A DNA stretch of 64,000 bases from an uncultured Gemmatimonadaceae bacterium (GTDB taxonomy: Bacteria; Gemmatimonadota; Gemmatimonadetes; Gemmatimonadales; Gemmatimonadaceae), in the NCBI GenBank assembly GCA_963781585.1, contig CAWAGQ010000004.1, forward strand, positions 160,001 through 224,000. Reading direction: 5' to 3'. The notes beneath the pieces were generated by a model. That model had not been told where the DNA came from and did not search any database. It was given only the letters and a program-made list of their open reading frames with translations. The first letter of the stretch is position 1, and every line of letters starts with the position of its first letter. Of the stretch, positions 17,261 through 63,231 are shown piece after piece. Position numbers and translations under genes: made by a program.

Positions 17261-18223
17261 CTAGTCCTCCGCCTCGAACAGGCCCGACAGCGACCTGTCG
17301 TCGTGGGTGTTCTTGATGGCCCTGGCGAGCAGCGGGCCGACCGAAAGGACGGTCAGCGTGGAGAACCGCTTTGATTCGGGGACGGCGATGGAATCCGTAA
17401 TTACCACTTCGCGAATTGGCGCTTCACAGAGACGGTGGACTGCGGGGCCCGAGAGCAGGCCGTGGGTGGCGCAGACGTAGATGTCGCGGGCGCCGAGCTC
17501 TTTCAGTGTCCGGGCCGTTTCGGTGACGGTGCCGGCGGTATCGATCATGTCATCGGGAATGACGCAGTCACGCCCATCCACCTCACCCACCAGGTTGAGC
17601 ACCTCAGCCACGTTAGGCATGGGGCGCCGCTTGTCGATCAGCGCGATCGAGGCGTCGAGTCGCTTCGCGAAGCCGCGCGCCATCTTCGCCGAGCCCACGT
17701 CGGGCGCAACAACCACCAGGTCGGTGAACTGCTTCTTCCTGAAGTGAGAGACGAACACCGGCGCGGCGTACAGATGATCGACCGGGATGTCGAAGAACCC
17801 CTGCAACTGATGCTGATGAAAATCGAGGCCGAGGAGTCGGTCGGCACCGGCGGCCTCGATCATGTTGGCCAGCAGCTTCGCCCCGATCGACACGCGCGGC
17901 TGGTCTTTCCGGTCCTGCCGTGAATATCCGTAGTAGGGCATGACGCCGGTCACGCGCTTGGCCGACGCGCGGCGCGCCGCGTCGATCAGGAGCAGGAACT
18001 CCATCACGTTTTCCGCCGGCGGGTTCGTTGGCTGCACGATGAACACGTCCGCGCCACGGACGTTCTCGTCGATCCGGACAAAGATTTCGCCGTCGGCGAA
18101 CCGCGTCAGCGTCACCTTGCACAGGTCGACCCCGAGATGGCGGGCGATCTCCCGGGCCAGACCTTCATTGGCAGTTCCCGCAATGAGCTTGAACCCGCGG
18201 AATCCGCCCGGCAGATGGTCCAT
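17261..18223 (-). CDS. prs: Ribose-phosphate pyrophosphokinase
   Basis: FADGE, PYYGYSRQDRK, VAPDVG, DDMIDTAGT. Confidence 0.97.
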   Translation of the reverse strand: MDHLPGGFRGFKLIAGTANEGLAREIARHLGVDLCKVTLTRFADGEIFVRIDENVRGADVFIVQPTNPPAENVMEFLLLIDAARRASAKRVTGVMPYYGYSRQDRKDQPRVSIGAKLLANMIEAAGADRLLGLDFHQHQLQGFFDIPVDHLYAAPVFVSHFRKKQFTDLVVVAPDVGSAKMARGFAKRLDASIALIDKRRPMPNVAEVLNLVGEVDGRDCVIPDDMIDTAGTVTETARTLKELGARDIYVCATHGLLSGPAVHRLCEAPIREVVITDSIAVPESKRFSTLTVLSVGPLLARAIKNTHDDRSLSGLFEAED

Positions 18224-18279
18224 GACCGTACTCGGCACCTCGGTGGGGGCTCGTGTGTAACCCTGCGCGCGCCAACGCA

Positions 18280-18350
18280 TTGCCCCCGGTGGATTCGAAC
18301 CACCATTCTCGGATCCAAAGTCCGATGTCCTGCCGTTGGACGAGGGGGCA
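18280..18350 (-). tRNA. tRNA-Gln(TTG), CCA not encoded
   Basis: Minus strand TGCCCCC...GGGGGCA acceptor stem, anticodon arm TCGGA-CT-TTG-GA-TCCGA, T-loop GGTTCGAATCC. Conserved ispE-tRNA-Gln-prs order. Confidence 0.95.
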
Positions 18351-18367
18351 ATCGCGAGTCCCCAAAC

Positions 18368-19288
18368 CTAGTCGATCCGAACTACAGGCTCAACGCGCTC
18401 GGCGGTGGCGGTTTCGATGATCGACACGCCCGGTTCGTCCACGCGCCAGCTGGCCGGACCAGCGCCGTCGGCCGACGGCGCTCCAGCGAGGGCGACGACC
18501 GCCGAGCCGGATCCCGACAGCAGGCAGATGGAACCGGTTCCGAGGAGACTGGCGGCACCGCGACTGCGCAGCGTGTTGAGCAGTCGGGCGATGACGGGCT
18601 CGTGGCCCGCGACCGGGCGCTCGAAGTCGTTGTGGACCCAACCGGCGACCGCCGGCCACGACCGGAGGGCCTGGGATGGCAGCACGACGGCCGGCGACGC
18701 CTGCGGGTCCTGGTCGATCCACTGGTAGGCGTCGTGGGTCGACACCGATACCGAGGGCATGAACACCCAGCCGCGGCGCGCCGTCAATGGCGGCAGGGCA
18801 AGCAGCCGCTCTCCGCGGCCCCACCCCAGGGCCAGCGGCGAGACGTCCTGTGTGAGAAAGGGAACGTCGGCGCCTAACGAGCCCGCCAGGGAAATCAGCA
18901 ATTCGGGCTCCACGGGACGCGGATTCAGCGCATTCAGACCCCGGAGCACGGCGCCGGCATCGGCGCTCCCGCCACCAAGGCCCGCGCCCACCGGAATCCG
19001 CTTGCGTATCCCGATCGCGAATCCGGTTGGCCACCCGGCGCGCTCGCGGTAGGCGGATGCCGCCCGCCACGCGAGGTTGTCTTCGACCGGACCCAGTCGC
19101 TCCAGCGAAACGCCCTCGCCGTCGCAGTCCAGCGACCGGTCACGCGCCGGCGCGCGCACCGTCACATCGTCGCCGAGCGCCAGCCGGCAGTAGAGCGTCT
19201 CCACCTGATGGAAGCCCGTGACGTCGCGGGCCAGGACGCGCAGAAAGAGGTTGACCTTCGCCTGGGCGAGCAGCCGCGCGGCACCCAT
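18368..19288 (-). CDS. ispE: 4-diphosphocytidyl-2-C-methyl-D-erythritol kinase
   Basis: AKVNLFL, KRIPVGAGLGGGSADA, LGADVPF, NDFE, LSGSGS. Confidence 0.95.
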   Translation of the reverse strand: MGAARLLAQAKVNLFLRVLARDVTGFHQVETLYCRLALGDDVTVRAPARDRSLDCDGEGVSLERLGPVEDNLAWRAASAYRERAGWPTGFAIGIRKRIPVGAGLGGGSADAGAVLRGLNALNPRPVEPELLISLAGSLGADVPFLTQDVSPLALGWGRGERLLALPPLTARRGWVFMPSVSVSTHDAYQWIDQDPQASPAVVLPSQALRSWPAVAGWVHNDFERPVAGHEPVIARLLNTLRSRGAASLLGTGSICLLSGSGSAVVALAGAPSADGAGPASWRVDEPGVSIIETATAERVEPVVRID

Positions 19289-19292
19289 GGGT

Positions 19293-20315: not shown

Positions 20316-20320
20316 CGACC

Positions 20321-21868
20321 CTACTCCGCGCGCGCGAGGTCGAGCAGGTCGTACAACTCCTTCAGCGACTCCTCATCCGCTGCCCCCCGCTCGCGCATGG
20401 CGTCGCGCACTTCGATCGCACGGTCCAGCGCCGACCGGCCACGATAGAGCAGGGTGTCGATCGGGACGATGTCGTCGCTCTCGAGGCGCGCCGGTGGGCT
20501 GAGCGGCTCGTCCTCGAGCGACCGCAACCCCGCGAGGCCCGTCTGCAGGAGTGCCTGGAGCGCCTGACCCGAGGCGCCGCGATTCGGTGATGGGACCTTC
20601 GCCCCCAGCGGAACCCGGGCGGCCGCCGGTTCCGAGGGAGCGACCCCGGAGCGCACCGCGGGCTGTGCCGCCGGCGTCACGCGCCGAGACCGCGACAGCA
20701 GTGCCACCCGCTGTTCGATCTCCGCAACCGGGACGCCCGGCAGAAGCAGGATCTGTGCTGCGGCATCGACCGCATTCAGCCCTTCGACGTCGAGCGGATC
20801 CGATCGACGTCCGGCGTCCCCGAAGAACGCAGCGGCCTGCGGCGCATCGAACCCGGCGGCGAATCGTTCCATCCGGTCCAGGTTGAGGCGGAGATCCCGA
20901 CGAACGCGTTCGCGAGTGATGGGGTCGACGGCGACCCGCGCGTCGGCCACGAGTCGGCGAAGGTGCTCGGCGCGCGTCGTGCCTTCCTCGCGAAAGCGCG
21001 CGTCGGGGGCGCTCGCAGTCCCGCGCTCGACAACGTGCGGTCCGGTGTCGGAATAGAACAGCTGGTCGATCGGCACCACCGGAGGCTCGGATTCCAGGCG
21101 GGTATCGCGAGCAGCCGAGGCGCGCGCGAATCGCGCGATCTCGCCGCTGGCCAGGTTGATGCGGCCGCGGGCGCGCAGGTCGGCGGAGGCGCGCCGGAGC
21201 AGGGCAGCGGCCGCGCGAAAGAGCTCCCCTTCGGTCTCGGTCAGCGGTGCGTCGGGAGACAGCGAGCGGAGTCCGGTCTCGACGCTGTCCGCGACATCGC
21301 CCAGCGGCGCGTGATCCGCCACGCCGGCGATGCCGCGCAGGCTGCGGACGCGGCTCACGACGTCGTCCAGCAGCGCCCGGTTGCTGGAATCGGCGACGAA
21401 CGCGTCCAGATCGGTGGCGATGGCGGCGATCTGCAGCGCGACATACACCGGCGCGGTGGTCGCGGCCGGCGCCGGGGGTGTCGGCCGCGCTCCTTCGTTA
21501 GGCACGTGCCGTCGCAGGGCGGTGATGCGGCGACTGGCGCGCTGATCGTCGGCCGCGGTCCAGCTCGAGGCGGCCGTGATCAATGCCCGCAGGTCTTCAA
21601 CCGCGTCGCGCAGGTCGTCCAGCAGGCCCAGCGACCAGGACAGTCCGCCATCCCGAAGCTCGTTGCCGATCCGCTCCAGCACGAACGCCAGCTCTCCTAC
21701 GCGCGGCACGCGGGCCATGGTAGCGCTGCCTCTTAGCGCCCGCGCAGCGGCCACGAAAGCCCCGGCGTCGGGCTCGCTGTCGTGCCGGGCGAGCTCTCCC
21801 TGAATGGCCTCCAGGTACTCGTCGGCCTCGGCATGGAAGAATCGCAGCAGATCCGGGGAGTGAGTCAT
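20321..21868 (-). CDS. Protein with two degenerate Hpt-like domains
   Basis: FF..EADEYL...ARALRGSATMA...LA..LE and a second VRSLRGIAG...VA..VE; internal repeat VPID.L.Y. Confidence 0.7.
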   Translation of the reverse strand: MTHSPDLLRFFHAEADEYLEAIQGELARHDSEPDAGAFVAAARALRGSATMARVPRVGELAFVLERIGNELRDGGLSWSLGLLDDLRDAVEDLRALITAASSWTAADDQRASRRITALRRHVPNEGARPTPPAPAATTAPVYVALQIAAIATDLDAFVADSSNRALLDDVVSRVRSLRGIAGVADHAPLGDVADSVETGLRSLSPDAPLTETEGELFRAAAALLRRASADLRARGRINLASGEIARFARASAARDTRLESEPPVVPIDQLFYSDTGPHVVERGTASAPDARFREEGTTRAEHLRRLVADARVAVDPITRERVRRDLRLNLDRMERFAAGFDAPQAAAFFGDAGRRSDPLDVEGLNAVDAAAQILLLPGVPVAEIEQRVALLSRSRRVTPAAQPAVRSGVAPSEPAAARVPLGAKVPSPNRGASGQALQALLQTGLAGLRSLEDEPLSPPARLESDDIVPIDTLLYRGRSALDRAIEVRDAMRERGAADEESLKELYDLLDLARAE

Positions 21869-21904
21869 GAGCGGATGGCGGCTGGGATATCCGTGGGCAG
21901 GCGA

Positions 21905-22642: not shown

Positions 22643-22749
22643 GGTCAGGAATCGTCTCGCGTGGCGCGTCCCCGGCTGTTGCCCGACGGGACGTTGCTCG
22701 TCGCAACCGGGGTCATTACGTTCGCTGGTAATCTCGCTCGGAGCAGTCC

Positions 22750-23178: not shown

Positions 23179-23214
23179 TCCGCGCATAGCGGAACCGCGT
23201 TGCCTGCGGCGAGA

Positions 23215-23625: not shown

Positions 23626-23708
23626 CGAACAGGCGCTCCGAGAGGCGGTGCGCGCACAAGCTAGCCTGCGTCCATGGTGACGCGAAGGCCCAGGGAGGCC
23701 AACCGAAC

Positions 23709-29212: not shown

Positions 29213-30896
29213 ATGCACCATCGTGCTGTCGGTGCTGCTCTGGCTGGTGCCGTGCGCCGTCACCGCTCAGGCTGGATCGCTTCCGCAGGCGCTGAACCTG
29301 GAGCAGGCGGGAAAGTGCGGCGACGCGTTCCCGCTTTATCGGCAGGCACTCGGCGAGGGTGATGTCGCCGGGGCCCTGCTCGGCCTCGAACGATGTGCGT
29401 CGGAGCTCGGTCGCGGCGACACCCTGTTGGTGGTGCTGGACAGCGTACTGCGGCTTCGCCCGCGCGATCCGGTGGCGCGCGACGCGCAGCTGCGCACGCT
29501 GACCTCGGCGGAGCGGTTCGACGCGGCGTCGGCGGCGTTCTCGCAATGGACGGCCGCCGCGCCCGGGGATGCCGCGCCTTATCGCCAGTACGCGCACCTG
29601 CTGCTCCAGGCCGGCCGGCCGGCCGCCGCCGATACCGTCCTCACCGCCGCGACCTTGGCGTTAGGCGGCACGCGTGAAATCGCCGCCGAGCTGGCGGAGA
29701 TGCGTGCCACACTCGGGATGTGGGATGCGTCGGCGCGAAGCTGGCGTGAAGCCATGGTGTCGCTGCCGTACCTCGAACAGGCGGCGGTGTACGTCCTGAG
29801 CCAGGCGCCGCCCGCGGCGCGCGACTCGGTGCGCACGGTGCTGCGAGGCCCCCCGGTCGAGATCCACGTGCGTCGAATACTCGCGGGACTCGAGTTGCGC
29901 TGGCGCTCCGCCAGCGAGGCCTGGCGGGCCCTGAGCGTGCTCCCCGCGAGCGATTCCGCGGTCGCCGCGTGGCTCGAGTTCGCCGCCGATGCCTCGCAGC
30001 AGGACGCGTGGCTCGCGGCGCGCGACGCGTACGTGGCGGTGCTCGATCACGGCGCGCCGGGCGACAAACTCGTGGTCAACGCCGCGACGGCCGCACTCCG
30101 GGGCGGTGAGCCCGCCTCCGCGGTGGAGATTCTGGACGCACACCCGACCACCGCCGACTCGTCGGTCGCGACGCGGATGGTGCTGCTGCGCGTGCGTGCG
30201 TTGAGTGACATGGGACGCCCCACCATGGCCGACAGTCTCCTTGGTGCAAACGCCTCCGTGCTCGATTCCGCATCGCGCGACGAAGCGATTCGAGCGGTCG
30301 CATGGGGCTGGATCCGCAGCGGTGACGTGGAGCAGGCCAGGACCACTCTGGCACGCTCCGCCTCGAGTGCCGGTCCCGATGACGAACTGGCCTCGTGGTT
30401 TGCGCTTTACGAGGGCGATCTCAAGACGGCGCGCTCGGGCCTCCGCCATTTCGACGAGACCTCGCGGGACGCGGTGCTCGCCATGGCCCTGTTGACGCGA
30501 ACCCGCGCCGATACGTCCGTGAACGCGGGCCAGGCCTTTCTGGCGCTGGCCCGCGGCGACACGGCGCGAGCCGCCGCCGCATTCGAGGCGACAGCCGCGA
30601 CGCTCACCGATGCCGCCCCATTCATGCTGGGGGTCGCGGCACGGCTGTATCGGAGCACGCCCGATTCACTGCGGAGTCCCGGCATCTGGAAGATGCTCAT
30701 CGAGCAGTACGCGCAGGCACCGGAGGCCGCCGAAGCCGACCTCGAGTGGGCCCGCACGCTCCGCCGCCACGGCGACAATGCTGACGCGGTCACGCGCCTC
30801 GAGCATCTTATACTGACGTATCCGCAAAGCGCCCTCGTCCCGCAGGCCCGGCGCGAGCTGGAGCTCGCGAAGGGCGCCATTCCTCCGCTTCGATGA
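29196..30896 (+). CDS. Secreted TPR-repeat protein
   Basis: Signal-like N-terminus, Ala/Leu-rich helical repeats, C-terminal LIEQY...PEA...LEHLILTYPQSALVPQAR (BamD/CpoB-like TPR end). Start uncertain. Confidence 0.8.
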   Translation: MASGRRCTIVLSVLLWLVPCAVTAQAGSLPQALNLEQAGKCGDAFPLYRQALGEGDVAGALLGLERCASELGRGDTLLVVLDSVLRLRPRDPVARDAQLRTLTSAERFDAASAAFSQWTAAAPGDAAPYRQYAHLLLQAGRPAAADTVLTAATLALGGTREIAAELAEMRATLGMWDASARSWREAMVSLPYLEQAAVYVLSQAPPAARDSVRTVLRGPPVEIHVRRILAGLELRWRSASEAWRALSVLPASDSAVAAWLEFAADASQQDAWLAARDAYVAVLDHGAPGDKLVVNAATAALRGGEPASAVEILDAHPTTADSSVATRMVLLRVRALSDMGRPTMADSLLGANASVLDSASRDEAIRAVAWGWIRSGDVEQARTTLARSASSAGPDDELASWFALYEGDLKTARSGLRHFDETSRDAVLAMALLTRTRADTSVNAGQAFLALARGDTARAAAAFEATAATLTDAAPFMLGVAARLYRSTPDSLRSPGIWKMLIEQYAQAPEAAEADLEWARTLRRHGDNADAVTRLEHLILTYPQSALVPQARRELELAKGAIPPLR

Positions 30897-41818: not shown

Positions 41819-41919
41819 AATTTGGCCATGATACCGGAGCCAACACGTCCGGGCATGTACACACCCGATCCGCCAACCCGCGAGCCGCTCGCCTAACGCG
41901 GCAGCGGCCCTAGTTCCAA

Positions 41920-42103: not shown

Positions 42104-42775
42104 CTAGCGCCGTTTGCGCCGGCGCGCCACCGCGCCACTCAGCATCCCGACCAGGCCCGTGCCCATCAGCGCCAGCGACGCCGGCTCGGGGGCCACCGTC
42201 GGTCCGGGTCCTGGATCAACTGTCGGACTGGCGCACGAGGAATCGTACGGCCCGTTGTTCGCCACGCCGTTCGTTACAACCAGCTTGGTGGAGCAATCGT
42301 TGGGACCCGCCTGCCCGTGGATGGCCCAATTCGCGGTATTGAGACTGGCGAACGTGGGTCCCGAGATGCGGAACGTGAACTGCGTCGTCTGGCCAGGCTG
42401 CAATCCGTTCTTCACGGGAGAGGGATTGGGATGCACTCCCCCCGCGTTCTTGGTGATGCCGGCGCCCGACAGGCCGTTCGTCCCGAGCGACCACGACCCC
42501 GGTCCCACCACCGAGAGCGATCCGTTGACGTAGCTGAAGTTCGCCACGCCGAACAGACCCATGGCGGTGAAGATGGTGCCGCCATAGGTGCCGTTGAAAC
42601 CGGCGTTGTTGGTCACCATCATCACGATCTCCGTGATGCTGGACGTGATCGACGTCTTCGTAATCGAGACCGAAGCACAAGTCGAGAATGTATTCCCGCC
42701 GCACACCTGCGCCTGCGCCACGTTAGGCACCACCGAAACAAGCGCCGCAACCGTTGCTGCTCGAACGAACTTCAT
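42104..42775 (-). CDS. PEP-CTERM sorting-domain surface protein
   Basis: Signal peptide; S/T/N/G-rich body; C-terminal APEPASLALMGTGLVGMLSGAVARRRKRR; SD AAGGAG. Confidence 0.92.
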   Translation of the reverse strand: MKFVRAATVAALVSVVPNVAQAQVCGGNTFSTCASVSITKTSITSSITEIVMMVTNNAGFNGTYGGTIFTAMGLFGVANFSYVNGSLSVVGPGSWSLGTNGLSGAGITKNAGGVHPNPSPVKNGLQPGQTTQFTFRISGPTFASLNTANWAIHGQAGPNDCSTKLVVTNGVANNGPYDSSCASPTVDPGPGPTVAPEPASLALMGTGLVGMLSGAVARRRKRR

Positions 42776-42844
42776 GGTCAGGGGCTCCTTCGCCCGGTTC
42801 TTCGCCCGCACATTTGGCCATCTGAACAGCTTGCTTCGCACATT

Positions 42845-51678: not shown

Positions 51679-54431
51679 AGCGTTGCGACCTTCGCGGCGA
51701 GCTGCTGCCGGCGGGTGCTCCACTCGGTCTCGCGGCGGCGCTCGGCGTCGACGACGTCGGGCTTCGCTCTCGACACGAAGGTCGGGTTCTCGAGGCGGGC
51801 GCGCAGCGCGGCCAGCCGCTGATCGAGCGCTTCCAACTCACTGCCGAGCCGCGAGCACTCCTTGTCGATGTCGATCGCACCCGCGAGCGGCAAGACCACT
51901 TCGGTGCCGTCGACGAGGACGGCGTGCGCGGCGGGCCCGGTGGGCGCATCTGCAGCCAGCGTTGCGGTGCACCGGGTGAGCCGGCCGATGAGGCCGGCCT
52001 CGGCGGCGACCGCGGCCTGTGCGTCCTCACCAGGAACGATGACGAGCGGAAGGGTGGTGGCAGGCGGGATCGCGTAGTCGCCGCGAAGCTGCCTGGTGGC
52101 GGTCACGATCTCCCGCACGAGATCGAAGGAGCTGGTCTCGCCCGGCACGTCCCGCGGTCGCGGCCACGGCGCAGAGGCGAGGAAGTCCTGTTCGGTGATT
52201 CCCGGAAGCCGTTGCCACAGGGTCTCGGTAACGAACGGGACGATTGGTTGCAGGAGGCGAAGCGCCTGGTCGAAGGCGTACACCAGCACCGCGCGCGCCA
52301 CGTCACCGTCGTCGGTGCTGGCGAGGCGGCCGCCCTTGACCGACTCGAGGTACCAGTCGGCGAGCTCGTTCCACACGAATGCGCGCGCCGCCTCGGTGTA
52401 TTCGTTGAGTCGCAGGCCGGCCGTCCGCTCCCGGGCGGTCCAGCCGCCGGCGGTGGGGCGCGCGGGCCCGAGGGCGGCGTCGCAGGCTGCCACCGCCGCG
52501 TTCACCCGACCGAGGATCCAGCGATCGGCGCTGGTGAGCCGTCCGGGCGCGATGGCGTCCAGGTCGGTGACCGGTGCGGTGCCGACATGGGTGAGCAGGT
52601 AGCGGCCGATGTTCCACAGCTTGGTAACGAAGTTCCGTCCCGGGGCGAACGACCGATCGAGGTCGCCGGGGTCGAGAATCGTATCGGCGCCGAGTCCCAT
52701 GCCGGCGATGACGGTGTAGCGCAGGGCGTCGGCGCCGTAGAGCGACACCACGTCCAGCGGGTCGATCCCGTTGCCTAACGATTTGGACATCTTCACGTGC
52801 GACGTGTCGCGCACCGTGCCGTGCAGGTACACGGTATGAAATGGCGCCTCGCCCAGGAAGGCGAAGCCGTTCATGATCATCCGCGCGACCCAGAAGAACA
52901 GGATTTCGGGCGCGGTGATGAGGGCGTCGGTGGGATAGAAGGCGCGCAGGTCGGGCGTCTCATCGGGCCAGCCGAGGGTGGAGAATGGCCACAACCCGGA
53001 GGAGAACCAGGTGTCGAGCACATCCTCGTCCTGGCGCACCGGGCCGGAACACGCCGGACACCGGGTGAGATCATCGCGACTGGCGGTGACCTTGCCGCAC
53101 CCGTCGCAATACCAGACCGGGATGCGGTGTCCCCACCAGAGCTGCCGCGAGATGTTCCAGTCGCGGATGTTCTCCAGCCAGTTCACGTATACGGCCTCCC
53201 AGCGCTCGGGCAGGATTCGCACTCCGCCGTCGCGCACCGCCTGCAGCGCGGGCTCGGCGAGCGGTCGCATGCGCACGAACCACTGCTCCGAGAGACGCGG
53301 CTCCACCACCGTGTCGCACCGGTAGCAGCGCCGCAGCGCCACCCGGTACCGCTCCTGCTTCACCAGCAGCCCCTCAGCGTCGAGCATCCGCACGATCTGC
53401 TTGCGGGCCTCGAAACGATCGAGGCCGCGAAGCTCGTCGGGCACGCGTCCACCGGCATCCATCACCTCGCGCATCGCGCCGTGCTCGTCGATCACCACCG
53501 GCATCGCCAGCTGATGCCGCTGCGCCACCTCGAAATCGTTGGCGTCATGCGCCGGCGTGATCTTCACCACGCCGGTCCCGAAGGCCGGATCGGTGAATTC
53601 GTCGGCGATCACCGGGATCTCGATCCTGGCGATGGGCAACGTGACGGTGCGTCCCACCAGATCGGCATAGCGTTCGTCGGCCGGATGCACGGCCACCGCC
53701 ACGTCGCCCAGCATGGTTTCGGGCCGGGTGGTGGCCACCACCAGGCGCGGCTCGGTCGACCCTCGTGGCGCCGCCGTGAGTGGGTAGGCGATGTGATACA
53801 GGGTGCCGTCCGTCTCGTGGTGCTCGGCCTCTTCGTCGGACAGCGACGTAAGGCACCGTGGGCACCAGTGAATGACCCGGTGCCCCCGATAGATGAGGCC
53901 CCGTTCGTACAGGCGCACAAACGCCTCGCGAACGGCGCGCGAGAGCTGTGGTGACAGTGTGTACGCGGTGCGCGTCCAGTCGGCCGACGATCCGATCGCA
54001 CGCAACTGCTCGAGGATCGTGCCGCCAGTCTCGGCCACGAACCCCTCCGTCCGCTTCACGAAGGCCGCCCGGCCGATGTCGTGGCGCGACACTCCCTCCT
54101 GCACCAGCAGCTTCTCCACCACATTCTGCGTGGCGATGCCCGCGTGGTCGGTTCCGGGAACCCACAGGGTCTCGTCGCCGCACATGCGGCGCCACCGGAT
54201 GATGACGTCCTGGACCGTGTTGTTCAGCCCGTGCCCCATGTGCAGGACCGCGGTGACGTTCGGCGGAGGCATCACGATCACGAACGCGTCCCGGTCGCCG
54301 CCGGAGCGGCGCGACCGGGAGGCGTTCGCCGTGAAGAGGCCGGCCGCCATCCAGCGCGCGTAGAGCGGACGCTCGACGGCGGCCGCATCGTACTGCGGGG
54401 GAAGGTCGGTCAGGAGAGGCGTCGCGGACAC
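51666..54431 (-). CDS. valS: Valine--tRNA ligase
   Basis: PPPNVT..LHMGH, GTDHAGIATQ, ATTRPET, ITPAHD, WNISRQLWWGH, DTWFSS, KMSKS, C-terminal coiled coil. Start approximate. Confidence 0.97.
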   Translation of the reverse strand: MSATPLLTDLPPQYDAAAVERPLYARWMAAGLFTANASRSRRSGGDRDAFVIVMPPPNVTAVLHMGHGLNNTVQDVIIRWRRMCGDETLWVPGTDHAGIATQNVVEKLLVQEGVSRHDIGRAAFVKRTEGFVAETGGTILEQLRAIGSSADWTRTAYTLSPQLSRAVREAFVRLYERGLIYRGHRVIHWCPRCLTSLSDEEAEHHETDGTLYHIAYPLTAAPRGSTEPRLVVATTRPETMLGDVAVAVHPADERYADLVGRTVTLPIARIEIPVIADEFTDPAFGTGVVKITPAHDANDFEVAQRHQLAMPVVIDEHGAMREVMDAGGRVPDELRGLDRFEARKQIVRMLDAEGLLVKQERYRVALRRCYRCDTVVEPRLSEQWFVRMRPLAEPALQAVRDGGVRILPERWEAVYVNWLENIRDWNISRQLWWGHRIPVWYCDGCGKVTASRDDLTRCPACSGPVRQDEDVLDTWFSSGLWPFSTLGWPDETPDLRAFYPTDALITAPEILFFWVARMIMNGFAFLGEAPFHTVYLHGTVRDTSHVKMSKSLGNGIDPLDVVSLYGADALRYTVIAGMGLGADTILDPGDLDRSFAPGRNFVTKLWNIGRYLLTHVGTAPVTDLDAIAPGRLTSADRWILGRVNAAVAACDAALGPARPTAGGWTARERTAGLRLNEYTEAARAFVWNELADWYLESVKGGRLASTDDGDVARAVLVYAFDQALRLLQPIVPFVTETLWQRLPGITEQDFLASAPWPRPRDVPGETSSFDLVREIVTATRQLRGDYAIPPATTLPLVIVPGEDAQAAVAAEAGLIGRLTRCTATLAADAPTGPAAHAVLVDGTEVVLPLAGAIDIDKECSRLGSELEALDQRLAALRARLENPTFVSRAKPDVVDAERRRETEWSTRRQQLAAKVATLCGG

Positions 54432-55477: not shown

Positions 55478-55480
55478 TCG

Positions 55481-57445: not shown

Positions 57446-57608
57446 TTTCTGCGCCATGGTCGCGGCCACGTCAGGCAGAGCTGGTGAATCCCGTCCTGCT
57501 GGTGGAAGGTCGAGGCGATCGCGGTCTTCCCGCCTCGCCAGGCCACGGTACACCTTTGACGCCCGCGCGCTGTCCAAGGGCCGTGACCCGTTCCCGATCC
57601 CATCACAC

Positions 57609-59555
57609 ATGACCGCCTTGCACCGGCGCCGCCCGCTCGCCCTGGCCGGCGCGCTCATCCTGGTGGGCGGCTGCATCCAGCCGCTGCGCCTGGCCAGGGA
57701 CGATTCGCCCGTTGTTCTGGCGCACCAGCTGCTGAACGCGCCGGATCCCAGCGCGCACGGCCAATACCGCGTTCGCACCCTGTACTACGGCAGCGGCACG
57801 GACAAACGTCGCCCCGAATACCGCGACTCGGTGACGCTGAAAACACACAGCGTGGACGGGAGCAAGCTCGCGGAAGCGCCGAGTCCGGCCGCCGGCAAGG
57901 ACCGCGCGAAGTACTGGGGGTTCGACTTCAAGAAAATGCCGGTGAACGGGAGAGTCTGGTATCCGGATGGGAACGGGCCGTTCCCGCTGGTGCTGATCGT
58001 GCACGGCAACCACAACATGAAGGACTACTCCGACCCGGGTTACGGGTACCTGGGCGAGCTGCTGGCGTCGCGCGGTTTCATCCTGGCGTCGGTGGACGAG
58101 AATTTTCTCAACGGCAATATCCGCGGAGAGAACGACGCACGCGGGTGGATGCTGCTCCAGCACCTCAAGGCATGGCGGGGGTTCAACGATTCCGCGACGT
58201 CTCCGCTCGCGGGGAAGATCGACATGCACCGGATCGCGCTCATGGGCCATTCGCGGGGCGGGGAAGCGATCGCCGTGGCCGGCGCGTTCAACCGGCTGAC
58301 GCACTACCCCGATGACGCGACGATCAAGTTCGATTTCGGATTCGACATCCAGTCGCTGGTGGCGATCGCGCCGGTCGACGGACAGTACCGGCCTTCCGAC
58401 AAGCCGACCCCGCTTGCCGACTACAACTACTTCCTGATCCACGGCTCGCACGACGGCGATGTGTCCACCTTCAGCGGCCTGACCCAGTACGAGCGCATCC
58501 GGTTCACCGACGGGCAGCCGCGCTTCAAGGCGGCGATCTGGGTGTACCGCGCCAACCACGGGCAGTGGAACACCGTGTGGGGAAACAAGGACAACGGACC
58601 ACGCAGCGGCCGGGTGCTCGATCTCCGCGGACTCCTGCCGCCGGAGGATCAGCGTCGCTTTGCCGAGGTGTACATCACGGCCTTTCTCGAGGCGACCCTG
58701 AACGGACGCCACGAGTACCTGCCCATGTTCCGCGACCACCGGGTGGTGGGGCATTGGCTGCCGAAGACGATGTACGTGACCCGGTTTCAGGAGAGCGGGT
58801 TTCACGCCGCGGCCGACTACGAAGAAGACATCGACGTCACCACCGGAAGCGCCCCCGGCATCGTACTGTCCGGGGACTCGCTTTCGACCTGGAAGGAGGC
58901 GGCGGTGCCGTTCCGGTCGCGGAACAGCAACATGGCGCACGACGCGGTGTGGCTCGGCTGGAACAACCACATTGCCGGCGATGACACCACCAGGATGGGG
59001 CGCCCCGCCTCATACGCGCTCACGTTAGGCGATTCGATCCGGAGTGCGTGGCAGGTCGGGACGCGCAGTGAGCTCGTGTTCTCGCTCCGGCCTACCGATG
59101 CCCGACCGGGTCCCCGGTCACCGGCTCGCGACTCGACGAAGAAGGACTCCGTCAAGGCCAAACCGGCCCCGAAGCGCGCTGCACCGCGCAAGCCAGCCGC
59201 CGCCGATTCCACGCCGTTCGATCTCAGCGTGGAAGTGGCCGACGCCGCCGGGCACGCGGCCCGCCTCCCGCTGAGCCGGTACGGCGCCGTGCGCCGTCCC
59301 CTCGACGCGTACGTGTACCTGCGAAGCGGTCGGGACAAGCAGCGATTCGCCAGTCTCGCCGAAATGGTCCTCCAGACCTACGTCATTCCACTGGCCGATT
59401 TCCACGAGGCCGATTCCGCACTCGACCTGAGCTCGGTGAAGACGGTCCGGTTCGTCTTCGATCGCACGCCGGTTGGAACCGTGGTCCTCGACAACGTGGG
59501 CTTCTCGAACATGAGTCCGGATTTCCTGCTCGCCGCAGACGGACGGCCCCAATGA
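57609..59555 (+). CDS. Secreted/lipoprotein alpha/beta hydrolase
   Basis: Lipobox-like VGGC, PFPLVLIVHGNH, GY.YLGELLASRG, nucleophile GHSRGG, HGSHDGDV, ANHGQWN. Confidence 0.85.
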   Translation: MTALHRRRPLALAGALILVGGCIQPLRLARDDSPVVLAHQLLNAPDPSAHGQYRVRTLYYGSGTDKRRPEYRDSVTLKTHSVDGSKLAEAPSPAAGKDRAKYWGFDFKKMPVNGRVWYPDGNGPFPLVLIVHGNHNMKDYSDPGYGYLGELLASRGFILASVDENFLNGNIRGENDARGWMLLQHLKAWRGFNDSATSPLAGKIDMHRIALMGHSRGGEAIAVAGAFNRLTHYPDDATIKFDFGFDIQSLVAIAPVDGQYRPSDKPTPLADYNYFLIHGSHDGDVSTFSGLTQYERIRFTDGQPRFKAAIWVYRANHGQWNTVWGNKDNGPRSGRVLDLRGLLPPEDQRRFAEVYITAFLEATLNGRHEYLPMFRDHRVVGHWLPKTMYVTRFQESGFHAAADYEEDIDVTTGSAPGIVLSGDSLSTWKEAAVPFRSRNSNMAHDAVWLGWNNHIAGDDTTRMGRPASYALTLGDSIRSAWQVGTRSELVFSLRPTDARPGPRSPARDSTKKDSVKAKPAPKRAAPRKPAAADSTPFDLSVEVADAAGHAARLPLSRYGAVRRPLDAYVYLRSGRDKQRFASLAEMVLQTYVIPLADFHEADSALDLSSVKTVRFVFDRTPVGTVVLDNVGFSNMSPDFLLAADGRPQ

Positions 59556-60490
59556 GCCGCTTCGCGAGAGATGCGGTCCTCGCCGCCGGGCTGCTGGCCG
59601 TCTCCGCGGTAGCGGCGCGCGCCCAGCGCGACCGCTACGCGCCCATCGTGCTCCAGCTTCCAGCGTCGGCGCGCGCCACGGGTCTGGGCGGCGCGACCGT
59701 GGCCCTGCGGGATATCGAAAGCCTGTTCGCGAATCCCGCTCTGGCCGGCACCCTCACGGGGGTCGCGGTGTCGGGCGAACAGTTCCGGGCCAGCCGCCAG
59801 GGGACGATCGCCGCCAGCGTGTCGTTAGGCACCCTCGGGGTGTCGGTCGGCGCCCAGTTCTTCGACTTCGGGGTTTCGCAGGGTGCAGCCGACGGCTTCC
59901 CGACGGCGCGGCAGTGGCCCGCACCCAGTACCGTGATCGACGAGCGCGCGGCCGCGGCAGCCTCGAGTTTCTCCGGCGCCATCGCCCTCGCCGCGGCGTT
60001 CAAGGGCTACCGCTTCGGTCTTGCGGCGAAGTACATCGATGAGCGGCTCGGTGTGCGCCGCGCGGAAAGACCGGCGTTCGACCTCGGCATCGCTCGCGAT
60101 CGGGGGAGGGTGACAGTGGGCTTGAGCGTGCAGAACATCGGCCCCACCGTCGACTTCGCACCTCTGCGCAGTGCGCAGCTGCCGTTGCGCGCTACGCTGG
60201 GCATGGCGGCGTTCGGTCTCACCGAGGGCCCACTCGATCTCGGGCTTTCGGCGGCCGTCACGGTCCGACGTGACGGGTATGTCGCGCCCGCGGTGGGCAT
60301 GGAGTGGTCGTACTGGCCGCTCGAAGGGTACACCTTCGCGGTGCGCGCCGGCGTCCGCAGGCCGGAGCTGCGCGAACAACGGCCGCTGACGGCCGGCGCG
60401 TCATTCACGCTCGATCGGATCTCGGTGGACTACGCGTTCGAGCAGATGCGTCACGGCGCAGGACACCGGATCGGTCTGAGACTGCGCTAG
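59552..60490 (+). CDS. PorV/PorQ-like (FadL-type) outer-membrane barrel
   Basis: Signal peptide, LQLPASARATGLGGA, LFANPA, FDLG, VQNIG, LPLRATLG, DYAF, HRIGLRL. Confidence 0.75.
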   Translation: MSRFARDAVLAAGLLAVSAVAARAQRDRYAPIVLQLPASARATGLGGATVALRDIESLFANPALAGTLTGVAVSGEQFRASRQGTIAASVSLGTLGVSVGAQFFDFGVSQGAADGFPTARQWPAPSTVIDERAAAAASSFSGAIALAAAFKGYRFGLAAKYIDERLGVRRAERPAFDLGIARDRGRVTVGLSVQNIGPTVDFAPLRSAQLPLRATLGMAAFGLTEGPLDLGLSAAVTVRRDGYVAPAVGMEWSYWPLEGYTFAVRAGVRRPELREQRPLTAGASFTLDRISVDYAFEQMRHGAGHRIGLRLR

Positions 60491-60805
60491 CGGCGCGACT
60501 CTCCGGCGCCGGGTTGATTCGACCGGGCCGGCCGGCCCCCACCGAAGATGTGACCTTCTTGCAGTTCGGTTTTTGTCGCCGCGCTGCAACGAATCAGCGA
60601 TCTGTCCGCGCCTCGCGCGACAGCTGCGCACCGGACCAGGGGCGCCCCTCTCCCCGCATCGCATCTGACTGTCGCGCAACGACTTCAGCATCAATTCCGA
60701 CAACAGGTCTGGAGATTGCGTTATTCCCCGCACAACTCGGGCGGTGGAGGGGTCGCCGGTGCGCCGGCGACCGCGGGTACGGGGTCACCTCGGACTCTCA
60801 CACTC

Positions 60806-61381
60806 ATGAAAACAAGGAAACTCTGGCGTTCACTGCGGGCCGTGCTGGCGATCGTCGGCATTGCCGGCTGCGCATCGGATCCGACGTCGCCTGCTCCTGT
60901 TTCCGGGGCTTCCCCGAATCTCGTGGGGGGACTGCTGGGAAGCCTGACGACTGTCAACGCACTCACGCGCATCACGCCGCTCAACAAGGACGTCTCCGTC
61001 TCGGCGGTGATCGGGAAGGCAGGCGGGACCATCCGGATCCCCGAAGCGGGCTTCACTCTTACCGTACCGAAGAACGCGGTGAAGTCGCCGACCACGTTCA
61101 CCGTCACCGCGGTGAAGGGAAAGCTGGTTGCGTACGAATTCGAGCCGCACGGAACGCAGTTCTCGCACAAGCCGGTTGCGGAGCAGGACCTCCGCGTCAC
61201 GAACTGGAACGGACGCCTGCTGCCGCTGCTCAAGGCGGCGTACTTTGCGGACCGGAGCCAGCTCGACCTGAAAAACCTCACGGCTGAGGTCTCGGAGATC
61301 ATCTCCGGGCTCCTCCAGCCGCTCACCGGGAAGTTCCGGTGGGACATTCCGCACTATTCAGGATACATCGTCTGCTGGTAG
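60806..61381 (+). CDS. Lipoprotein with ZU5-like domain ending in HYSGYIVCW
   Basis: Lipobox IAGC; IGKAGGTI.IPEAGFTLTVPKNAV; YEFEPHG.QF..PV; terminal IPHYSGY. Confidence 0.8.
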   Translation: MKTRKLWRSLRAVLAIVGIAGCASDPTSPAPVSGASPNLVGGLLGSLTTVNALTRITPLNKDVSVSAVIGKAGGTIRIPEAGFTLTVPKNAVKSPTTFTVTAVKGKLVAYEFEPHGTQFSHKPVAEQDLRVTNWNGRLLPLLKAAYFADRSQLDLKNLTAEVSEIISGLLQPLTGKFRWDIPHYSGYIVCW

Positions 61382-61485
61382 GTTGCCGGACAGTCTCGAA
61401 CCCCACGCCCCGCTAAGCAGTGGGCCGTGAGGGCGCAGGGTGGGGAAGCGCGATCATGGCGTTTCCCCACCCTTGTTTGCCTGGG

Positions 61486-63168
61486 ATGGAAACGGCTGAG
61501 CGGTCGCGCTCGTCGAGTTGGGAGGCTCGCGCCCCAGGCCAAATGCCCCGCCCATCCCATTCGAGCGTCAGAATCGACGATCCGTTCCCGAGCGCGCGCG
61601 GCGGCGACCCCGCGGCGGCGCTGGTGCGCGCCGCGCAGGCCGAGCGGGACGGCCAGCTCGCCGTCGCCCGCAACCTGTATGAGCAGTGCGTCTGGTCGCA
61701 CGCGCGCACGCTGTCGCCGGCGCAGATCGGCGCGTGCCTGATCGGCATTGCCCGCACCTATCATCTCGACGGTGACTCCGAGGCGGCGCTCGATGTGCTC
61801 GAGGCGGCGTTCGCGCTCGCATCGGCGCAGGGAGACGACGCGTCGCTCGGAGCCGCCCTCAATTGCCAGGCGGTGGTGCGTTGGCACCGCGGACAGCTCG
61901 ACGAGGCCGAGCGGCTCTATCTCGAGGCCCAGGACTGTGGCGCGCGAATCGGCGATCGCCGCCTGGTCGCCATGACGGCACAGAACCGCGGTATCATCGC
62001 GAACGTGCGTGGTGAGCTGTCGGTCGCCTTGAACCACTATCGCGAGGCCCTGGTGGCTTTCCGCGCCCTCGGCCTCACCCGCGAGGTGTGCAACGTCCTC
62101 GGCAATCTCGGGATGCTCCACACGGATCTGGAGCAATGGGACGATGCCGAGCGGGCCTTCGGCGAGGCGCGGGGGCTGGCGGAGTCGGCAGCCGACGCGC
62201 ACACCCGCGTGCTGATCGAAGTCAACATCGCCGAGCTGGCCATCGCGCGCGCCGAGTTCGATCGGGCCCGGGTCATCAGCGAGCAGGCGTTGCGCCTGGC
62301 GCACACGCTCGGCGACGCCAGCGCCGAGGCCGAGTTGCGGAAGCATCTGGGAGTGGTGTGCCGCGAGACGGGTCACTACGAAGACGCCGACCATCATTTC
62401 GCCATCGGCGAGTCGCTCGCCGAGCGCCGCCAGAACCTGCTGCTCCTGGCGGAACTGGCTCGCGAGCGGGCAGATCTGCATTCCCGCCTGGGGCGCTTCC
62501 GCGAGACGGTACGGTGTCTCAATCGCTCCCATCAGTTGTTCTCCGAGCTGCGCGCGCGGCGCGACATCGCCGACATCGATCGCCGTCACCTGCGCATCGA
62601 GAGCACGTTCCTCGACGTTGTGCGACAGTGGGGTGAGTCGATCGAGTCCAAGGATGCGTACACGCAGGGCCACTGTCTTCGTGTGGCCGATCTGTCCTGC
62701 GCGATCGCGCGTCGCGTTGGCGTGGACGACCGCCGGCTGTTCTGGTTTCGCGTGGGCGCGCTGCTCCACGATGTCGGGAAGATTGCCGTGCCGGCCGAGG
62801 TGCTGAACAAGCCCGGGCGTCTCACCAGCGAGGAATGGGCGCTGATGCGCTCACATCCCGAAGCCGGCGTGGAACTGCTGCGAGGCATCGACTTTCCGGA
62901 GGATGTCATCCCGATCGTGTTGTCGCACCACGAGCGCTGGGACGGGACCGGGTATCCCCAGGGGCTCGCCGGCGAGCAGATCCACCTGGCGGCGCGGATT
63001 CTCGGCCTGGCGGACGTCTACGATGCGCTCACCACGAATCGGAGCTACAAGCCGGGGATGACCCATGCCGACGCCATGCAGACCATGCGCGACGGGGCCG
63101 GCTCGCACTTCGACCCGGCGTTGTTCTCCGAATTCGAAGCGGTGATGATGACGCTCTCGCCGCGTTAG
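61486..63168 (+). CDS. TPR-repeat + HD-GYP cyclic-dinucleotide phosphodiesterase
   Basis: MalT/Rap-type TPR helices; KDAYTQGH, LLHDVGK, NKPGRLT, HHERWDGTGYP, ADVYDALT..RSYK, HFDP. Start uncertain (61456, 61486 or 61543). Confidence 0.92.
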   Translation: METAERSRSSSWEARAPGQMPRPSHSSVRIDDPFPSARGGDPAAALVRAAQAERDGQLAVARNLYEQCVWSHARTLSPAQIGACLIGIARTYHLDGDSEAALDVLEAAFALASAQGDDASLGAALNCQAVVRWHRGQLDEAERLYLEAQDCGARIGDRRLVAMTAQNRGIIANVRGELSVALNHYREALVAFRALGLTREVCNVLGNLGMLHTDLEQWDDAERAFGEARGLAESAADAHTRVLIEVNIAELAIARAEFDRARVISEQALRLAHTLGDASAEAELRKHLGVVCRETGHYEDADHHFAIGESLAERRQNLLLLAELARERADLHSRLGRFRETVRCLNRSHQLFSELRARRDIADIDRRHLRIESTFLDVVRQWGESIESKDAYTQGHCLRVADLSCAIARRVGVDDRRLFWFRVGALLHDVGKIAVPAEVLNKPGRLTSEEWALMRSHPEAGVELLRGIDFPEDVIPIVLSHHERWDGTGYPQGLAGEQIHLAARILGLADVYDALTTNRSYKPGMTHADAMQTMRDGAGSHFDPALFSEFEAVMMTLSPR

Positions 63169-63231
63169 GCAGCGGGCAGGCTCCAGCCTCGACCGGAATC
63201 CCGGGCCCCCACCGGGAATGCCGGCGCCCGC

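Follow-up and report, generated by a model that had tools for sequence, protein, structure and literature searches.

An octamer written silently through the genes of a soil bacterium and scattered relatives appears to behave most like a DNA-uptake sequence

The octamer CGTTAGGC is a real hyper-abundant genomic word. It is written silently through the genes of a soil bacterium and of scattered relatives, and its behaviour is probably best matched by that of DNA-uptake sequences. The force acting on this word reads double-stranded DNA, ignores strand and replication direction, and overrides codon preference. As a tentative first choice, we propose a molecular drive of the DNA-uptake-sequence kind, linked to homologous recombination between cells. 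To our knowledge, Neisseriaceae and Pasteurellaceae are the only families in which sequence-biased gene exchange with a hyper-abundant word as its mark is established. The word of the Gemmatimonadales could, still tentatively, represent a third such system, this time in a soil phylum not easily studied.

Abundance of the word in the window and in the genome

An exact-match scan of the whole stretch of DNA that was analysed (64 kb, hereafter the window) found 13 exact copies of CGTTAGGC, nine on the + strand and four on the - strand. These are the same 13 copies, at the same positions, that had been listed in an earlier reading made by eye (the sequence-only reading). None of 100 dinucleotide-preserving shuffles of the window reached this number (mean 0.95 copies, sd 0.94, maximum 4). 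The zero-order estimate of 2-3 copies per window given in that reading is consistent with our expectation of 216.6 copies per genome. Reading frames, assigned from our own gene calls, are as follows.

17611..17618, +, antisense in the ribose-phosphate diphosphokinase gene (17264-18280, -); G-CCT-AAC-G (Pro-Asn)
18872..18879, -, sense in ispE (18371-19288, -); TCG-TTA-GGC (Ser-Leu-Gly)
21496..21503, +, antisense in gene 20324-21868 (-); G-CCT-AAC-G (Pro-Asn)
29659..29666, +, sense in gene 29196-30893 (+); GCG-TTA-GGC (Ala-Leu-Gly)
32739..32746, +, sense in a DinG/YoaA-like helicase gene (32219-34720, +; family scores below curated cut-offs); TCG-TTA-GGC
34093..34100, -, antisense in the same DinG/YoaA-like helicase gene (32219-34720, +); G-CCT-AAC-G (Pro-Asn)
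40222..40229, +, sense in gene 39480-40784 (+); TCG-TTA-GGC
41891..41898, -, intergenic, overlapped by no called gene
42721..42728, +, antisense in gene 42107-42841 (-); G-CCT-AAC-G (Pro-Asn)
52773..52780, -, sense in valS (51669-54431, -); TCG-TTA-GGC on the invariant KMSKS-Leu-Gly
59023..59030, +, sense in gene 57609-59552 (+); ACG-TTA-GGC (Thr-Leu-Gly)
59823..59830, +, sense in gene 59552-60487 (+), weakly PorV/PorQ-like, below cut-off; TCG-TTA-GGC
63163..63170, +, provides the TAG stop of gene 61543-63165 (+); CGT-TAG-GC

The two in-gene readings that had been proposed account for most of these copies, with seven nCG-TTA-GGC (S/A/T-L-G) and four antisense G-CCT-AAC-G (P-N), but not for the intergenic copy or the one that forms a stop codon. 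The copy assigned to the KMSKSLG motif of ValS is confirmed, the gene scoring 1032 bits against the NCBIfam valine-tRNA ligase equivalog cut-off of 704. Of the word-poor relatives, 20 could be read at this site; none has the word there, and their leucine codon is CTC, CTG or CTT. The nine one-mismatch copies listed in the sequence-only reading are all present, but they had been picked by hand from 36 of a class that shows no enrichment in the window (49 matches in total versus 43.8 +/- 7.2 expected). The motif does occur in both orientations, but the 9:4 imbalance is meaningless, since the split is 724:718 genome-wide.

The whole genome holds 1,442 copies of CGTTAGGC, compared to 50.6 under an order-3 Markov model, which makes it the most over-represented 8-mer of the genome. 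Within genes, 804 sense and 348 antisense copies were counted, versus 20.5 and 29.6 (maxima 28 and 40) in 20 synonymous-codon shuffles, which preserve amino acids and codon usage. The word occurs at 0.19-0.34 copies per kb on every one of the 17 contigs. The sequence-only reading had allowed that the enrichment might vanish under a null preserving codons and amino acids, or might be absent from the rest of the genome; neither was the case, and the 8-mer is enriched under Markov and codon-shuffled nulls alike. Its proposal that the DNA motif itself is the target is supported, in that a force acts on the word through rare codons (TTA, CCT). Genome-wide counts of one-mismatch variants indicated that all eight positions are sharply specified, with a few variants mildly enriched (CGTTAGGT 5.4x, CGTTATGC 4.7x, CGTCAGGC 3.5x and TGTTAGGC 3.5x). 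The word has a weak flank extension, with a base other than C before CGTTAGGC and a purine after it, and these preferences recur in 171 purely intergenic copies.

Codon use and placement of the word

As many as 54% of the 1,432 TTA codons of the genome sit inside the word, meaning that a DNA-level force distorts codon usage to the point of causing more than half of one codon's occurrences. The word occupies 769 of 4,826 [SPTA]-L-G sites (16%) and 279 of 1,172 P-N-[VADEG] sites (24%). Its density is 0.26 per kb in intergenic DNA versus 0.23 per kb in coding DNA, and 117 copies provide stop codons, 72 of them in genes ending in the CGT-TAG-GC style and 45 in genes ending in GCC-TAA-CG.

The word might be regarded as a by-product of coding or mutation, arising from a favoured peptide or codon pair, from a translational signal on the rare TTA, or from a C-to-T hotspot converting CGTCAGGC. 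A single frame does hold 67% of in-gene copies (769/1,152), and CGTCAGGC is itself common, with 1,519 copies genome-wide. Nevertheless, we consider this reading hardly credible. Antisense, intergenic and stop-codon copies are favoured equally, and the reading is refuted by the codon-preserving shuffle, by the frame occupancies (the frames that would make C-to-T silent are used least often in the genome, at 1% and 3%) and by the richest relative sampled, G009, which fills all four frames.

Placement along the genome depends on the composition of genes. From low-GC3 to high-GC3 genes, word density climbs 10-fold (0.043 to 0.405 per kb) and the occupancy of xLG sites rises from 3.5% to 26.5%. Four of the largest word-free stretches (on contigs C8 and C5) have a G+C content near 0.62, and the two for which genes were listed have a GC3 of 0.62-0.77. 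The shortage of the word in low-GC3 genes and in these stretches would be expected if the word accumulates with residence time and recombination. Any bias linked to recombination would likewise give a GC3 gradient, as would a word that itself stimulates recombination. Close pairs are rare (20 gaps under 200 bp versus 71 expected), only eight convergent pairs lie within 200 bp of each other, and no gene of the genome holds more than four copies. No replication polarity was detected, as leading and lagging genes were occupied at 16.2% versus 17.1% of xLG sites and 23.5% versus 27.1% of PN sites; the leading strand holds 53% of the copies because of gene orientation. Hence, the skew relative to replication for which the sequence-only reading proposed a check is not there.

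Distribution of the word among relatives

The word is on or off among genera of the Gemmatimonadales, which agrees with the earlier suggestion of a lineage-specific signal. Across 301 genomes counted, relatives displayed either the same word or baseline counts. Word-rich genomes carry about 1,400 to 6,400 copies each and fill 16-54% of permissive sites. Two genomes (G233 and G290) have about 4,000 copies each, versus 66 in G286 of the same genus. Such a pattern between close relatives means that the gene for the reader of the word should be findable by comparison. We found no alternative hyper-abundant word in 400 kb of G003, the one word-poor genome sampled in this way.

In 319 kb of G009, the word reaches 1.25 copies per kb, with about half of the permissive sites filled. 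All four open frames are used in this relative (occupancies of 37%, 51%, 54% and 23%), and its intergenic word density equals its coding density. The system is made tractable by this high saturation, up to half of the permissive sites, and by the availability in culture of a carrier whose genome is finished and whose methylome is published, Gemmatirosa kalamazoonensis KBS708, in which the first 50 kb of plasmid 1 hold 30 copies.

The word is conserved while its positions turn over. Between G000 and its same-genus relative G001, 42 of 54 word sites were retained, versus 39% for other 8-mers in the same phases, which amounts to twice the retention of ordinary 8-mers; synonymous sites nearby show normal divergence whatever their distance from the word. 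Between genera, only 15 positions were common to the 38 of G000 and the 158 of G009 in 107 ortholog pairs.

Candidate forces behind the word

Four functions had been offered in the sequence-only reading. Among these, a DNA-uptake-like signal is the best fit, as a tentative preference; a nucleoid-protein site remains as an unlikely option, while a Chi-like site and a methylation site are disfavoured. DNA uptake sequences are the best-known form of recombination-linked molecular drive. In the mechanism that we propose, a component of the type IV pilus/ComEA/ComEC route, at the surface or in the periplasm, would prefer word-bearing DNA fragments, alleles gaining the word would then be passed on more often, and the word would accumulate wherever protein sequence permits. 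The biased step may be uptake or the ensuing recombination. Saturation at the level seen in G009 is reached more easily by drive than by per-site selection. As with DUS of Neisseriaceae and USS of Pasteurellaceae, the word is short and non-palindromic, occurs in thousands of copies on both strands, is enriched beyond composition and codon nulls, sits in genes in the frames that cost least, in defiance of codon preference, is depleted in atypical DNA, persists as a word despite turnover of its positions, and is accompanied by type IV pilus, ComEA, ComEC and DprA genes.

ComEC was detected in 30 and DprA in 28 of 31 relatives, and all five genomes tested had PilT and a ComEA-like gene inside a conserved comEA-pilB-pilT-pilC cluster. 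These uptake genes are equally present in word-poor genomes and thus do not explain the on/off pattern. No ComP-type receptor, in Neisseria a dedicated sequence-specific minor pilin, was found together with the word among 31 genomes; the Pfam ComP_DUS model passed its cut-off in only one of them, a word-poor one, and pilins of about 40% identity were found in word-rich and word-poor genomes alike. The likeness to DUS and USS is proposed for a different phylum without known competence: we know of no case of natural transformation in the Gemmatimonadota, and our literature search on the subject found no paper. Also unlike DUS and USS, which come in dialects, relatives carry the same word or none (301 genomes; one word-poor genome scanned for other words). 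About half of known uptake sequences sit in terminators, according to a preprint (bioRxiv 10.1101/2025.10.24.684340). The Gemmatimonadales word, by contrast, is not concentrated in terminators or inverted pairs, as its intergenic and coding densities and the few convergent pairs indicate.

The strand symmetry predicted by uptake drive is equally predicted by biased gene conversion without any uptake bias, in which a nicking or mismatch-processing enzyme would read the word in heteroduplex and steer repair to the word strand, spreading it after any homologous exchange. This would also yield saturation, a link between GC3 and recombination, and excess conservation limited to eight bases, and an easily gained or lost enzyme gene fits the on/off pattern, including G233 and G290 versus G286. 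We nonetheless regard it as unlikely. No enzyme emerged as a candidate. The genome's single Vsr-type endonuclease is a C5-methylase fusion missing from other word-rich genomes, the TTA centre of the word is not creatable by Vsr-type T:G repair, and near-cognate neighbours are too scarce as a source pool. Similarly unlikely is that the word is the binding site of an abundant chromosomal protein (for nucleoid organisation, segregation or self-recognition) selected for overall density rather than at single sites. An 8-bp, highly specific, strand-symmetric word of equal density in genes and spacers would suit such a protein, as would conservation of the word despite turnover of its positions and the fairly even use of genes, with at most four copies per gene and few close pairs. 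However, 1,400 to 6,400 sites at 16-54% occupancy require an implausibly large per-site benefit, word-poor sister genomes manage without the word, and this explanation gives no obvious reason for the 10-fold dependence on GC3.

Chi of E. coli is 8 nt long and occurs about once per 4 kb; the word is likewise an asymmetric, lineage-specific, over-represented sequence of about this length and density. A Chi-like signal for an unrecognised DNA-end-processing machine would protect and recombine self DNA and be self-driving in incoming linear DNA, in keeping with the link between GC3 and recombination, and the on/off pattern would track changes in the recognising subunit. RecC was found in one of 31 genomes, and in the genome studied (93.5% complete) neither RecC nor an AddAB-sized PD-(D/E)XK protein was found, so that no RecBCD or AddAB/AdnAB enzyme is apparent; PD-(D/E)XK nuclease matches are confined to frames of 557 and 576 aa, and only one of three UvrD-family helicases is long (1,029 aa), without a nuclease match. 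Moreover, unlike Chi, the word is not co-oriented with replication once gene direction is allowed for, and its density in G009 far exceeds what Chi would need. KOPS and architecture-imparting polar octamers are also over-represented octamers, yet are strongly skewed to the leading strand, whereas the word is not. The lack of replication polarity and of a detectable RecC makes KOPS unlikely and leaves the Chi-like reading very improbable. Only marginally better placed is a word of the HIP1 type, recognised by an orphan DNA methyltransferase to which a repair activity may or may not be coupled. HIP1 (GCGATCGC) of cyanobacteria behaves alike: it is an octamer 15- to 300-fold over-represented and tied to methylases (PMC5861425, PMC4390886). 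It is hyper-abundant in genes and spacers and conserved beyond the neutral rate; its function, long unexplained, is now being linked to gene transfer. The genome studied does encode several DNA methylases. Nevertheless, HIP1 is palindromic, embedded in sites of two orphan methylases and near-universal in its phylum, whereas the word is asymmetric and on or off between genera. In the published SMRT methylome of KBS708, which speaks to m6A as m5C is poorly detected by SMRT, the only motifs are RGATCY, ATGCAC and CCAGN7TCA, none of which overlaps the word. The single C5 methylase of the genome had no relative in word-rich G001, G005, G009, G014, G015 and G030 at E <= 1e-10.

The sequence-only reading had pointed out that the motif contains the integron core, the R' box of attC and attI with the consensus GTTRRRY. 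This is correct: GTTAGGC, the canonical core, makes up seven of the eight bases, and the full 8-mer is the R' end of attC hairpins in cassette arrays of this phylum. By our count GTTRRRY is found in about 0.2% of 8-mers, which makes chance an unlikely source of the match, although the comparison is post hoc. The genome also encodes an intact IntI (434 bits, cut-off 265) and contains cassette-like arrays with the word at their boundaries. Hence, the dispersed copies could be secondary sites of IntI or an IntI-like recombinase, serving as cassette landing pads or as boundaries recruiting chromosomal genes; this we hold to be quite improbable. About 20 copies lie in arrays, and these, like the arrays of relatives, have the paired inverse core and hairpin of attC; more than 1,400 stand alone, lacking an inverse core, a hairpin or a cassette, and lie in frame in housekeeping genes, valS among them. 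Word abundance does not follow the integron integrase. The integrase is not sufficient, being full-length in word-poor G002, G003, G004, G006, G007, G011 and G286. It is apparently not required either, as it was not found in word-rich G005 and G015 and is in three frameshifted pieces in G009, these last two points being weakened by gaps in the MAGs; an IntI-like 301-aa recombinase occurs in only four of 31 genomes, one of them word-poor. We know of no recombinase chemistry that converts near-matches into matches. C at position -1 is disfavoured in dispersed copies and frequent in attC copies. Genomic insertion sites require no more than GWT, according to a preprint (bioRxiv 10.1101/2022.09.11.507474).

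That the word is an integron core site nonetheless offers a testable link of DNA uptake, or of another genome-wide process, to integron biology. A rather improbable version of the uptake-sequence reading is that the uptake or recombination machinery would be tuned to the universal integron core site, with environmental cassettes and arrays caught preferentially and the spread of the word through the genome as a by-product. If true, a bolder corollary would be that thousands of R boxes standing alone at the ends of genes and within them provide ready chromosomal boundaries for the integron integrase, opening a route from ordinary genes to cassettes that bears on the unsolved origin of integron cassettes. 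In one array of the phylum (contig G021:C95), 26 forward copies lie within 24 kb, each closing a hairpin of 82-95 nt with -26 to -32 kcal/mol.

Enrichment and reading of the word in the source genome

The window (C4:160001-224000 of G000, the source genome, a 5.72-Mb assembly in 17 contigs) contained exactly 13 exact copies of the word, nine on the plus strand and four on the minus strand, just as had been found by eye in the sequence-only reading. Dinucleotide-preserving shuffles yielded 0.95 ± 0.94 copies, and none out of 100 reached 13. The nine one-mismatch copies reported alongside exist, yet they are merely a subset of 36, and the window shows no enrichment of this class: matches including one-mismatch copies number 49 in all against 43.8 ± 7.2 expected. 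According to our gene calls, seven of the exact copies are read as nCG-TTA-GGC and four in antisense as G-CCT-AAC-G, the two proposed readings; the remaining copies are one intergenic and one that forms the TAG stop of a gene. The copy read as KMSKSLG does lie within a ValS gene, which passes the valine-tRNA ligase equivalog, and further carriers in the window include the housekeeping genes prs and ispE.

Across the genome, the word occurs 724 + 718 = 1,442 times over the two strands, compared with expectations of 216.6 (zero order) and 50.6 (order 3), making it the highest-ranking 8-mer by order-3 z-score. All eight positions are sharply specified, with the best one-base variants at just 3.5-5.4x. 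Every contig is enriched (0.19-0.34 per kb). The flanks are unique, with identical 28-mers numbering at most three, and therefore the word is not a repeat element. Genes were called with our own codon-usage caller (4,833 genes, 87% coding, approximate starts). A within-gene shuffle of synonymous codons, which preserves the protein sequence and the codon counts, the word's own TTA codons included, predicted 20.5 copies in sense and 29.6 in antisense, where 804 and 348 were counted, and shuffling codon order gave 14.9 and 18.1. Thus, the enrichment neither vanished under a null that keeps amino acids and codons nor was restricted to the window, which supports a force acting on the DNA motif itself. 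These shuffles, together with the frame counts below, also led us to reject a coding or mutational artefact.

Reading frames of the word in G000 genes
nCG-TTA-GGC: 769 copies
G-CCT-AAC-G: 279 copies
GC-CTA-ACG: 69 copies
C-GTT-AGG-C: 35 copies

The third phase is blocked by TAG and TAA and is employed at gene ends instead, as CGT-TAG-GC in 72 genes and GCC-TAA-CG in 45, so that the word supplies the stops of 7.6% of Arg-ending and 6.8% of Ala-ending genes. TTA makes up 0.86% of Leu codons overall versus 18.6% in [SPTA]-L-G, and 54% of all TTA codons of G000 lie within the word, in line with the use of scarce codons first noticed; the genome has tRNAs for TTA, CTA and CCT. Among permissive peptide sites, 15.9% of [SPTA]LG and 23.8% of PN[VADEG] carry the word, and therefore the 2.3:1 sense excess reflects opportunity rather than strand. 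Spacers carry the word as densely (0.26 per kb) as coding sequence does (0.23 per kb), and 171 purely intergenic copies share its weak flank preferences (C disfavoured at -1, purine at +9). Gene by gene, no G000 gene stands out in density, the maximum being four copies.

By smoothed GC skew, the leading strand holds 53% of the copies versus 61% of gene bases. Occupancy in leading versus lagging genes is 16.2% versus 17.1% at [SPTA]-Leu-Gly sites and 23.5% versus 27.1% at Pro-Asn sites. KOPS polarity is rejected, since both classes of genes are equally occupied. The suggestion of a Chi-like site fails on the same absence of a leading/lagging difference, and also on the detection of RecC in only one of 31 genomes and on the lack of any AddAB-like protein found in G000. 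The coefficient of variation of the word's spacing is 1.0, with short gaps depleted (20 under 200 bp versus 71 expected). Along the gradient of gene GC3, word density climbs 10-fold, from 0.043 to 0.405 per kb, and [SPTA]-Leu-Gly occupancy from 3.5% to 26.5%. Four of the largest word-free stretches (on C8 and C5) have a G+C near 0.62, and the two with genes listed have a GC3 of 0.62-0.77.

Distribution and turnover among relatives

Word counts were bimodal across 30 relatives, most of which are incomplete metagenome bins in which "not found" differs from "absent".

Copies of the word in relatives of G000
Rich: G001, 915 copies
Rich: G005, 605 copies
Rich: G009, 6,360 copies (1.25 per kb)
Rich: G014, 460 copies
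Rich: G015, 516 copies
Rich: G030, 345 copies
Weak: G013 and G016
Remaining relatives: 6-65 copies each, under the reversed-word control

Among 301 genomes of the phylum, rich ones occurred solely in family f1 (genera g1, g34, g37, g40, g41, g42, g44 and g45) and in g72, a genus of family f2; G030, from the 30-relative set, adds a rich genome in a third family, f3. Within g42, two genomes (G233 and G290) hold about 4,000 copies each versus 66 in G286. This distribution agrees with the lineage-specific word first proposed. Four word-poor genomes (G008, G078, G117 and G196) enter the tallies only, and no claim depends on them. In the cultured Gemmatirosa kalamazoonensis KBS708, 30 copies lie in the initial 50 kb of plasmid 1, versus none of the reversed word.

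Samples of G009, G001 and G003 covered 6-11% of each genome. The 319 kb from G009 have the word in every one of the four open frames (occupancy 37%, 51%, 54% and 23%), at a density as high in spacers (1.27 per kb) as in coding sequence (1.20 per kb). No comparable hyper-abundant alternative word appeared in the 400 kb sampled from word-poor G003, and dialects were rejected on this basis. In a quick single-gene tree of ValS, G009, G015, G016, G000 and G001 form one supported clade, poor G003 is the sister of rich G005, and G030 lies amid poor genomes. This topology implies that the word arose three or more times, or else was lost repeatedly.

The comparison of G000 with G001, a member of the same genus, covered 238 ortholog pairs at 88.6% nucleotide identity; of 54 word sites, 42 were intact, as opposed to 39% of other same-phase 8-mers. 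Synonymous divergence beside the word was normal and flat at every distance; protection is therefore confined to the eight bases, and a recombination footprint around them is rejected. Against G009 (107 pairs, median amino-acid identity 62%), G000 had 38 positions and G009 had 158, of which 15 were common, roughly as expected if permissive sites had filled up independently. In ValS, the invariant KMSKS-L-G is written TCG-TTA-GGC in G000 and G009 and TCG-CTA-GGC in G001, while in word-poor genomes the word occupies none of 20 readable sites and Leu is always CTC, CTG or CTT. The whole valS gene carries four copies in G009 and two each in G005 and G030, and none in poor genomes.

The integron link

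The integron core consensus is GTTRRRY. As the sequence-only reading had pointed out, the word contains it, and the word also closes attC hairpins in arrays of this phylum. Word-poor genomes have few copies, clustered on one strand at one per 500-700 bp. On contig C95 of the relative G021, 26 forward copies and one reverse copy in 24 kb sit between small unrelated genes (Arr, GNAT, DMP19, SDR, cupin), each closing an imperfect hairpin of 82-95 nt whose other end is GCCTAAC (-26 to -32 kcal/mol); these are integron attC sites. By our own count, GTTRRRY is present in about 0.2% of 8-mers; the identity between word and core is thus real and unlikely to arise by chance, although the comparison is post hoc. 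We found no literature on integron cores of Gemmatimonadetes. Where integron cassettes insert into genomes, GWT reportedly suffices (bioRxiv 10.1101/2022.09.11.507474).

Large one-strand cassette arrays of word-poor relatives
G021:C95:1-24000
G019:C3
G021:C80
G021:C43

Their cassettes include Arr (rifampin ADP-ribosyltransferase), GNAT, DMP19, SDR and ADP-ribosylglycohydrolase, with attC hairpins of 82-95 nt.

The integron integrase, IntI, is intact in G000 (C7:185885-186829; 434 bits, cut-off 265), where two cassette-like arrays are bounded by the word and hold merely about 20 of the 1,442 copies. Of 31 relatives, 18 have a full-length IntI above the cut-off, many poor ones included; it was not found in rich G005 and G015, in a set that includes incomplete bins, and it is intact in very rich G233, G290, G297 and G158 as well as in poor G286. 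IntI is thus not sufficient for the word, not clearly required and not antagonistic to it, and with its presence independent of word density it is not the reader of the word. In G009, the word-richest relative, IntI (C182:835-1781) is split over three reading frames, as the result of pseudogene formation or of misassembly.

Outside the window, G000 also carries three identical cassette-like units bounded by the 8-mer, with a defence island adjoining an array.

Cassette-associated features of G000
C7:172353-174654, cassette-like unit
C7:182952-185253, cassette-like unit
C13:307604-309905, cassette-like unit
C13:299346-307390, defence island encoding the Thoeris proteins ThsB (TIR) and ThsA (Macro), an SNF2 helicase of 1,131 aa that bears a PLD nuclease domain, and an Eco57I-type methylase of 1,000 aa

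Each unit comprises a 76-aa ORF together with genes for a 301-aa tyrosine recombinase and a 389-aa IS91-type Y2 transposase. The recombinase fits the integron-integrase model solely at positions 5-181 and 216-314, and so lacks the IntI-specific insert; the sister species G001 has a 100% identical copy. This match suggests a recently mobile element inhabiting integron arrays.

Candidate readers and the nature of the word

Co-occurrence with methyltransferase, competence or RecBCD/AddAB genes had been suggested as a check, and none of the following candidates tracks the word. RecC, with its single occurrence, is rejected as the reader, as are the C5 methylase-Vsr fusion (4/31 genomes, no rich one besides G000), the IntI-like 301-aa recombinase beside the IS91-type transposase (4/31) and VirB4-type type IV secretion (1/31, a poor genome), the last prompted by a HIP1 paper. 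ComP_DUS-type pilins occur without pattern relative to word density, and ComEC, DprA, PilT and ComEA-like genes are found in rich and poor genomes alike; these were rejected too. The ComEA-like gene sits in a conserved comEA-pilB-pilT-pilC cluster, and inspection by eye of its HhH domains in three rich versus three poor genomes revealed no rich-specific feature. The idea of a methylation site is disfavoured by the methylome paper on KBS708, which reports m6A solely at RGATCY, ATGCAC and CCAGN7TCA, motifs other than the word, and by the C5 methylase not being found in other rich genomes. In G000 this methylase belongs to a single 779-aa protein (C7:476337-478673) in which an HTH domain and a C5 cytosine DNA methylase are joined to a Vsr mismatch endonuclease; G007 alone of the 30 relatives has a close counterpart, as two separate genes.

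The force on the word acts on duplex DNA; it is blind to strand and to replication, prevails over codon choice and occupies as many as half of the permissive sites. It guards just eight bases, permits turnover of positions, is weak in atypical DNA and toggles on and off between close relatives. Selection acting site by site could hardly sustain thousands of sites, while a transmission or conversion bias could. Because the DNA uptake sequence is the known precedent for such a bias, we tentatively favour, with slightly less than even confidence, a recombination-linked drive of that kind, in which uptake bias would be the likeliest step. Known uptake-sequence families differ from the word in their association with terminators and in having dialects. 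With these two features lacking and the receptor search negative, we do not class the word as a member. Our searches found no literature joining Gemmatimonadota to uptake sequences or competence, and the 8-mer strings among the matches listed were primers or unrelated.

A second over-represented word family in G000 (TTTGGCCT, AAAGGCCA and others) derives from tandem heptamer repeats, (TTTGGCC)n; one 8-mer of this family has 328 copies, just 60 of them inside called genes. G000, with an estimated contamination of 7%, also contains near-duplicate syntenic regions (C2:150-168 kb versus C6:138-155 kb; C5:298-324 kb versus C8:284-322 kb), exemplified by a 1,076-aa Eco57I-type methylase with copies identical at 965/1076 positions, which reflect either a bin of mixed strains or the duplication of large segments. 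CTAG is strongly depleted, occurring at 0.28 times the level expected from a maximal-order Markov model, and TAG accounts for about 30% of stop codons in our gene calls.
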